Below, in pieces: positions 18,030-18,467 of a stretch of DNA of 64,000 nt. Numbering within the stretch: position 1 is the stretch's first letter; each line of letters begins with the position of its first letter. Below the pieces are notes generated by a model, which saw only the letters and a list, made by a program, of their open reading frames with translations, searched no databases and was not told the DNA's origin. Position numbers and translations under genes: made by a program. This DNA comes from Escherichia phage vB_EcoP_EcoN5, in sequence record MN715356, one strand, 5' to 3'.

Positions 18030-18467
18030 TTACAAACAGATATAGACAGGTATGTCCATCTGATTTAGATATTTAAACATCATAGGTCTTACCTGAGATT
18101 GGTAATCTAGTCCTCCGTTGCTACAACCAAGTGGTGTTATGGCTAGAGAGGTGATTCCCTTATCTTTATAGGTAAGTAATAGCTTTTGTAAGCCTTGCTC
18201 TATCCACTCTATCTCAGAACCGTTTCTCCAATGCTTCTTAGTTGGAAAACACAGTCCTAGTCTCCCATCATTCAACCTCTGTAGGAGAAGTTGTCCGATC
18301 TGGAATCCAGAGTCGCAAGCAACCTTATACCTTTCAAAAGCTTCAGGGTATCTTCTTTTATACTCCTTAGCCACCCCTGCACCCATTACACCTACTAGGT
18401 TTACTGTGCAAGTTACTGTTTGAGCATCCACCGTGAAGACATTGGCTTTACCTTCAAAAACAATAGC
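18030..18467 (-). CDS. macrodomain protein, TARG1/DarG-like (ADP-ribose hydrolase family)
   Basis: Track ORF 18030-18551, start placed at Met 'MAIVFEG'; '[22 protein letters not shown]' and '[13 protein letters not shown]' parallel TARG1 'HCISEDCRMGAGIA..FKKKF' and 'MPRIGCGLDRL'. Confidence 0.5.

Follow-up and report, generated by a model that had tools for sequence, protein, structure and literature searches.

The window analysed here, 64,000 nucleotides (nt) of Escherichia phage vB_EcoP_EcoN5 (sequence record MN715356), carries on its minus strand an ortholog of phiEco32 gp37, and this gene encodes a macrodomain of the DarG type (hereafter the macro protein). Judged from sequence, a structural model and analogy with characterised systems, the macro protein is probably a stand-alone DarG2-type, AdfM-like anti-DarT DNA ADP-ribosyl glycohydrolase that serves in counter-defence. 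Its fold is that of DarG macrodomains, it has the DarG-type residues and is homologous to AdfM, its cellular relatives are linked to DarT while the phage has no DarT of its own, and its gene forms an accessory cassette under purifying selection. A counter-defence role against ADP-ribosylation had been proposed in a sequence-only reading of the window, made without database searches, and the fold and residues, the DarT-linked relatives and the AdfM homology all argue for such a role. The features on which the argument turns are the following:

18030-18470, minus strand: coding sequence (CDS) of the DarG-type macrodomain, 146 amino acids, 441 nt, phiEco32 gp37 ortholog (open reading frame (ORF) with translation, profile matches, AlphaFold2 model, ratio of non-synonymous to synonymous substitution rates (dN/dS))
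18468-18472, minus strand: TGATG, in which the stop of the o-spanin ORF and the start of the macro gene overlap (direct sequence reading)
18003-18470 (aligned as 18003-18465, equivalently 18008-18470), minus strand: single-gene accessory cassette, a 463-bp insertion/deletion (indel) (alignment with the macro-less phage 172-1)
Key residues of the macro protein: N24, the VGVMGAG loop at 26-32, T77-K78, H80, W81 and the G115-C-S-N118-G119-G120 loop (conserved columns)

The sequence-only reading had placed the ORF at 18030-18467; a minus-strand ORF does lie there, and the end given was 3 nt short, leaving out the ATG at 18470-18468. With this ATG the protein has the same 146-residue length as phi32_37 of phiEco32, and the A of the start codon is shared with the TGA stop of the o-spanin ORF, an overlap that suggests translational coupling of the two. 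The mechanical ORF reaches 18551, and the Bas91 annotation uses a longer start (498 nt). A start at 18551 was rejected, because all homologues begin with M-A/P-I-V-F-E-G (here MAIVFEG) and the indel boundary falls exactly at the 18470 ATG. The 2.9 kb around the gene are 95-96% identical to phiEco32, Paul, SGF2 and LorandFenyves_Bas91 (Bas91), all members of the genus Kuravirus in the Gordonclarkvirinae. Compared with phiEco32 or Bas91, the macro gene shows 30 synonymous and 4-5 non-synonymous differences (dN/dS 0.03-0.04); it is thus under strong purifying selection, and a ratio this low indicates that it is expressed and constrained. The macro identity itself is not new, as phi32_37 has been labelled 'Appr-1-p processing enzyme family' ever since the phiEco32 genome was deposited; other records label the gene 'phosphatase' or 'hypothetical protein'.

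The only Pfam family recognised in the protein is the generic Macro domain (PF01661; E = 2.7e-9, 37.4 bits against a cutoff of 22, residues 21-124), and more specific profiles point to DarG. The PADLOC DarG profile matched with E = 1.5e-44 and the NCBIfam DarG equivalog NF048014 with E = 1.7e-41, at 142.6 bits, under the 250-bit cutoff, over model positions 6-144 of 338; PHROG 335 gave E = 7e-32. In a sequence search of the PDB the top three hits were all DarG macrodomains, namely those of Mycobacterium tuberculosis (1e-26), the Thermosipho africanus DarTG (4e-25) and Thermus aquaticus (4e-24), and TARG1 came in at E of about 0.1 with 19-21% identity. A profile built from 40 homologues returned DarG with 4e-53 and 2e-50, TARG1 with 7e-16 and the remaining macro classes with 6e-8 or worse. 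Two other assignments were rejected: a YmdB/RNase III-regulator identity (NF001666, E = 0.005, 16.7 bits against a cutoff of 246) and a Poa1p-type phosphatase identity (PDB Poa1p chains at E of about 0.9-1).

An AlphaFold2 model based on the alignment of these homologues reached a predicted local distance difference test score (pLDDT) of 95.2 and a predicted template modelling score of 0.89, and showed a six-stranded sheet with helices on its flanks, that is, the three-layer alpha/beta/alpha macro fold which the sequence-only reading had put forward for structural checking. Foldseek ranked T. aquaticus DarG with bound ADP-ribose first (5m3e; template modelling (TM) score 0.93, root-mean-square deviation 1.4 A), followed by M. 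tuberculosis DarG (TM 0.91), Thermosipho DarTG (0.87) and then TARG1 (0.82, 19% identity). All 191 PDB structure matches at E<=0.001 were macrodomains or designs based on them. The macro protein is a DarG-type macrodomain, not a TARG1-type one, which narrows the earlier label 'TARG1/DarG-like'. It does share the macrodomain class with human terminal ADP-ribose glycohydrolase (TARG1/OARD1), K78 corresponding to TARG1 K84, but Asp125, which forms the catalytic dyad of TARG1 with Lys84, is replaced by Gly119, the phage residues N24 and W81 are Ser and Ala in TARG1, and the scores are far weaker than those for DarG; orthology with TARG1 was therefore rejected. By comparison, the DarG (DarG2) antitoxins of DarTG2 systems from T. 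aquaticus, M. tuberculosis and enteropathogenic E. coli (EPEC) came out on top in all sequence and structure searches and agree with the phage protein in macro fold and in catalytic and ADP-ribose-binding residues. The phage protein differs from them in corresponding to the N-terminal ~145 residues only, without the C-terminal DarT-sequestering domain and without a darT neighbour, and in being encoded in a lytic phage operon.

The residues that contact ADP-ribose in T. aquaticus DarG (TaqDarG) are N8, L9, T20, N22, V31, Q34, T79, G117, G119, N120 and G121, and W83 was proposed to stack on thymine (PMC5179494). Their aligned equivalents in the phage protein are N10, V11, T22, N24, V33, E36, T77, G115, S117, N118 and G119, and H80 and W81 correspond to Taq H82 and W83. 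Among TaqDarG mutants, K80A was the most damaging, followed by N22A and, after them, K29E and G119E (PMC5179494). The catalytic lysine, whose position the sequence-only reading had left unverified, is K78 within FPTKKHW; it aligns with K80 of the Taq and Mtb (M. tuberculosis) enzymes, K78 of PhiKZ AdfM and K84 of TARG1, and N24 aligns with Taq N22. The catalytic lysine of EPEC DarG is K54. Both K78 and N24 are invariant among the 40 homologues. The MGAG and GC.G regions singled out earlier could likewise be located, as V28-M29-G30-A31-G32 and G115-C116-S117-N118-G119, and both consist of invariant or near-invariant columns in this set. Three positions depart from the Taq enzyme (A31 for K29, E36 for Q34 and S117 for G119), and positions 31 and 117 vary across the family. 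The codon for residue 117 (18120-18122) specifies Ser in the window, Gly in phiEco32 and Bas91, and Ser or Ala in other members, and the Ser may be neutral. On these comparisons the macrodomain is predicted to be catalytically competent.

The cellular relatives connect the protein with DarT. An exhaustive search at E<=1e-10 gave 3,380 cluster representatives, the best of them 45-53% identical, and many are proteins of ~300 residues with the macrodomain at the N terminus. We took the 80 closest loci, each prokaryotic species being represented by a single genome (39-53% identity; spread over many phyla, enterics absent), and scanned their ORFs with a DarT profile seeded on Pfam-confirmed DarT. 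A DarT ORF was directly adjacent and on the same strand in 74 of these bacterial and archaeal loci; all six DarT neighbours checked in Pfam matched PF14487 above threshold. Two more homologues that were looked up singly also had DarT neighbours, and plasmid matches were annotated as pairs of macro and DUF4433/DarT proteins. On the phage side, the genes flanking the macro gene encode the o-spanin and a sigma factor, not DarT, and the DarT profile matched neither the window nor the complete Bas91 genome nor the segment of phage DE15 that holds a related copy. The phage thus encodes an orphan antitoxin: of the DarG2 protein it has the enzymatic half, and both the DarT-binding domain and the toxin are missing.

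Some DarG-type relatives were found fused to other domains: an N6/N4 DNA methyltransferase (P0143), the same methyltransferase together with NADAR-DarT1 (P0265), a helix-hairpin-helix DNA-binding domain (P0080) and a GreA-like domain (P0155). In a 286-kb contig (L006), a methylase with a faint NADAR match adjoins a stand-alone macro gene. By their domain content, these fused relatives and the L006 neighbourhood look like multi-domain DNA-directed counter-defence proteins.

A functional precedent comes from AdfM, the DarG2-like macrodomain of chimalliviruses (PhiKZ gp104, PhiPA3 gp108 and Asesino gp217), described in Cell Reports in April 2026, before which no macrodomain anti-DarT factor (Adf) had been reported (PMC13309987). 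AdfM strips the ADP-ribose added by DarT2 from a TNTC oligonucleotide in vitro, relieves DarT2 toxicity in E. coli completely and is needed for plating on DarTG2 hosts (PMC13309987). When the macro protein was searched by tblastn against 50,697 phage genomes, 270 records matched, mostly of jumbo phages and with PhiKZ gp104 among them; BLASTP gave 41% identity to gp104 over 148 residues (E = 3e-36). Counter-defence by a macrodomain is consequently not new in kind, the homologous PhiKZ protein being one that experimentally counters DarTG2; what the comparison adds is that the Kuravirus macro protein is, by sequence, a new homologue of this validated anti-DarTG2 factor in a phage without a nucleus. 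The two proteins have in common that they are encoded by phages, consist of a DarG2-like macrodomain alone and lack both a DarT partner and a DarT-binding domain; they also share the Asn/Lys active-site pair (N24/K78 here, N23/K78 in PhiKZ). They differ in a 9-residue insertion that gp104 has and the macro protein lacks. Kuravirus is moreover a 77-kb podovirus without a phage nucleus, for which the PicA-dependent nuclear import of AdfM is irrelevant, and the Bas91 annotation lists no homologue of chimallin or PicA. Nuclear import is probably a lineage-specific feature of AdfM rather than one of the family.

Other phages reach a similar end by different means. T-even phages use an orphan NADAR protein (AdfN) to erase DarT1 marks (PMC11825919). 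The strategy is alike, since the enzymatic half of a DarG antitoxin is kept without the toxin and ADP-ribose is erased from phage DNA, but the NADAR fold is not related to the macro fold, and the reaction differs in acting on the guanine-linked ADP-ribose made by DarT1 (PMC11825919). AdfB of ICP1 is an antitoxin mimic, for which direct interaction with DarT was proposed (PMC11481870). That a macrodomain alone could suffice is in keeping with the ability of the isolated DarG macrodomain to neutralise DarT, reported for Thermus (PMC5179494) and EPEC (PMC7003065). Hydrolysis of thymidine-linked ADP-ribose on single-stranded DNA has been shown only for the Taq, Mtb and EPEC DarG proteins and PhiKZ AdfM (PMC5179494, PMC7003065, PMC13309987). 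Potential targets exist among the hosts, DarTG2 being present in E. coli (PMC12255303), e.g., in EPEC E2348/69 (PMC7003065); a 50-kb stretch around the usual hsd region of E2348/69 did not contain its darTG2 locus.

The macro gene behaves as a discrete accessory unit. The cassette is bounded by a TGATGGC repeat at 18466-18472 and 18003-18009, and consists of the macro CDS and a 19-nt spacer holding a ribosome-binding site (AAGGAAAG) for the sigma gene; the arrangement is the same in phiEco32. In Kuravirus 172-1, which has no macro gene, the sigma start directly adjoins the o-spanin stop (TAATGGCG), and the junction reads …ATAGAATAATGGCGAAGAAG…. A blastn search with the sigma-macro-spanin segment matched 100 phage records. 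The whole segment was present in 39 of about 98 related records (~40%), and about 59 matched in two pieces lying 463 bp closer together. Carriers include the phage of the window, phiEco32, Bas90 and Bas91, and the close relatives without the gene include NJ01, PE006, 172-1, ES17, Bas93 and Bas94, with flanks 93-96% identical.

In the Gordonclarkvirinae, the site where the o-spanin stop and the sigma start meet varies in content (18003-18472 in the window; L007:2145; L095:848-1172; L096:970-1194). It is empty in 172-1, NJ01, Bas93 and Bas94; in genera other than Kuravirus it has gained an HNH endonuclease (Bas87 and SU7) or holds a phrog_30479 protein of 68-74 amino acids (Bas88 and Bas89).

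Copies were also found outside this subfamily, in the unrelated Chaseviridae. The Carltongylesvirus phages DE15 and TH37 carry a macro gene with 81% protein and 69% DNA identity to that of the window, the similarity ending at the CDS ends. In DE15, a 54-kb myovirus, the copy (L008:5994-6434) lies between the gene for the single-stranded-DNA-binding protein and small early genes, 3 kb from an 'antirestriction protein'. Because the nucleotide similarity to DE15 stops at the CDS ends, the comparison indicates gene-sized horizontal transfer between coliphage families. Patchy presence, single-gene transfer and purifying selection would together be typical of phage counter-defence genes. As to the source, the macro protein is closest to DarT-linked bacterial macrodomains (47-53%), followed by PhiKZ AdfM (40%) and the Taq and Mtb DarG proteins (36-38%), so that its similarity to AdfM does not exceed that to bacterial DarG macrodomains. 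In a neighbour-joining tree of 143 columns the deep bootstraps were below 20%, and the supported grouping was the Kuravirus and Chaseviridae clade only (100%). Recent capture from the DarG of the host was rejected, because a blastn search of 5,426 complete E. coli genomes gave no nucleotide-level match to the macro gene.

Combined with the above analysis, the following course of events could be envisaged. On infection of a DarTG2-type host, released DarT2 would ADP-ribosylate thymidines in single-stranded phage DNA and thereby block replication. The phage enzyme, presumably made from a middle-class operon alongside replication and sigma genes, would take up the ADP-ribose in its macro pocket, and Lys78, placed by Asn24 and with Trp81 near the base, would cut the bond between thymidine and ribose. 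Such activity on ADP-ribosyl-thymidine would restore unmodified DNA, replication could go on, and the phage would be protected. The enzyme is expected to be active against divergent DarT2 enzymes as well, because it would erase the mark and not bind the toxin.

Several points weigh against an anti-DarT role. Macrodomains of the DarG/TARG1 class can act on other ADP-ribose conjugates too. Two of the residue differences fall at positions where substitution lowers TaqDarG activity, namely Ser117, found where TaqDarG has Gly119 (G119E), and Ala31, which replaces Lys29 (K29E) and also occurs in other family members. The E. coli genomes offer no nucleotide-level counterpart of the gene, as said above, and a terminator-like hairpin stands between it and the nearest mapped promoter. 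Literature searches for a link between Kuravirus and DarTG found none, and the BASEL phenotyping of Gordonclarkvirinae was done without DarTG. Lastly, Iyer et al. argued that phage macrodomains chiefly target soluble ADP-ribose derivatives (PMC9503650).

The substrate could first of all be a different or broader macromolecular one, with ADP-ribose being removed from RNA (such as CmdTAC-like mRNA marks), from the phosphorylated ends of nucleic acids or from protein targets of host ADP-ribosyltransferases (ARTs), instead of or besides DarT2-modified thymidine. The catalytic lysine is common to the TARG1/DarG class, the TARG1 fold match reaches a TM score of 0.82, other ADP-ribosylating defences exist, and the hosts of the carrier phages do not universally have DarTG2. 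We nevertheless regard this as unlikely, because both sequence and structure are much nearer to DarG than to TARG1, whose Asp125 is lost, because the DarG-specific Asn and Trp are present, and because the nearest cellular relatives are paired with DarT specifically (74/80) and AdfM acts on DarT2-modified DNA.

Alternatively, the protein could hydrolyse soluble signals or toxic metabolites, such as ADP-ribose-1''-phosphate, O-acetyl-ADP-ribose or molecules of the cyclic ADP-ribose type, possibly together with the SLOG protein encoded two genes downstream (the gp35 ortholog). Iyer et al. predicted such a role for phage Macro, NADAR and SLOG proteins and noted Macro-SLOG fusions (PMC9503650), and the labels 'Appr-1-p processing enzyme' and 'phosphatase' would fit it. 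We found a fusion homologous to both window genes in Proteus phage 10 (L091:2998-3828); the single protein encoded there has 276 residues, with 43% identity to the macrodomain in its N-terminal half and 32% identity to gp35 in its C-terminal half. This reading seems quite unlikely: the labels are generic, the matches to Poa1p and YmdB-type proteins are marginal (PDB E about 1; NF001666 E 0.005), gp35 is kept in the macro-less Kuraviruses, its 120 best homologues are all stand-alone, and the link of the macro clade with DarT argues for DNA. For gp35 a sequence search of the PDB gave no informative match. The gp35 ortholog belongs to phrog_289, which is mislabelled 'GTP-binding domain', and in the window only the sigma gene separates the macro and SLOG genes. 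A functional link between the two is suggestive only, as judged from the fusion and the gene order. On a wider, very unlikely view, the macro protein would not be a dedicated anti-DarT2 eraser, and the two proteins would form a two-enzyme pathway that handles an undescribed ADP-ribose-derived product or signal, for instance by clearing a nucleotide immune signal or the ADP-ribose set free from DNA, and so protects from more than a single NAD-dependent defence.

Most improbable is a role as immunity or regulatory partner of a phage-encoded ART used in host takeover, with the macro protein reversing or limiting self-modification: T4 Alt, ModA and ModB are phage ARTs and several actinophage tblastn matches are annotated 'ADP-ribosyltransferase', but the DarT profile found nothing in the window, Bas91 or the DE15 segment, no ART is annotated among the 130 Bas91 genes or was detected by Pfam in ten large uncharacterised Bas91 proteins, and the macro gene is dispensable in ~60% of close relatives that have the same remaining genes.

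If the anti-DarT role is true, macrodomain anti-DarT factors would not be confined to jumbo phages that form a nucleus but would occur in ordinary small lytic coliphages as well, and enzymatic erasure of DNA ADP-ribosylation would work without any compartment. The related K-12-infecting BASEL phages provide a natural experiment, as they differ by exactly the macro gene (present in Bas90 and Bas91, absent from Bas93 and Bas94), and this presence/absence polymorphism makes the anti-DarTG2 prediction directly testable. In phage-therapy candidates of the phiEco32 group, the cassette would then predict host range on DarTG2-carrying E. coli, and a mechanistic annotation would replace the uninformative labels 'phosphatase' and 'Appr-1-p processing enzyme'.

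The genes and signals around the cassette are as follows:

18470-18730, minus strand: o-spanin (lipoprotein-like, MRKLNQFFIMSALVMSTSAC...), immediately upstream in the same operon (phrog_2425, E 2e-24; annotated as o-spanin in Paul, ShigP1 and EK5)
18615-18965, minus strand: i-spanin (Rz-like), overlapping the o-spanin (phrog_1152, E 2.9e-37; phiEco32 phi32_39)
17363-18007, minus strand: phage sigma factor (gp36 ortholog), directly downstream of the cassette (phrog_1740, E 6e-46; Sigma70_r2; phi32_36)
16974-17366, minus strand: YpsA-like SLOG protein (gp35 ortholog), two genes downstream (PF10686, E 5e-6, just under the gathering score; phrog_289)
19829-19837, minus strand: gp36-holoenzyme promoter element TAATGTATA, perfect match, ~60 nt upstream of the gene-40 ortholog (motif search)
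19001-18984, minus strand: strong terminator-like hairpin with the stem-loop AGCCACC-TCCG-GGTGGCT and TTTTT after it, located between the gene-40 ortholog and the start of the i-spanin

The spanin pair reported next to the macro gene in the sequence-only reading could be recognised, the i-spanin by its phrog_1152 match and the o-spanin as an overlapping lipoprotein-like ORF that ends at 18470 and probably starts at M34. In phiEco32, the leftward cluster with the DNA polymerase, nucleotide-metabolism and sigma genes belongs to the middle class, and a gp36-dependent promoter with the consensus tAATGTAtA was mapped upstream of gene 40 (PMC8948821). By this motif, the element at 19829-19837 is likely the middle promoter of an operon that runs through the spanin, macro and sigma genes. 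Because the hairpin follows gene 40, transcription into the spanin-macro-sigma genes needs read-through or upstream transcripts, and we infer read-through into the macro gene. Co-expression with replication functions would suit an enzyme repairing single-stranded DNA at forks. The hairpin lies inside an otherwise tightly packed operon, and the Paul record also annotates a terminator in the same segment.

Perfect copies of TAATGTATA occur four times, at 9996-10004 (+), 19829-19837 (-), 19901-19909 (+) and 27194-27202 (-), and matches with up to one mismatch were not enriched over shuffles. The copy at 19901-19909 (+), in the intergenic region 19770-20160, is not directed towards any obvious gene. 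The spanin pair (18470-18989) is placed in the leftward middle cluster. The holin and endolysin genes are ~19 kb away, within the rightward cluster of late structural genes (Bas91 12606-13345). In the phiEco32 annotation the o-spanin (57 amino acids) appears to start downstream of the signal peptide and the lipobox Cys.

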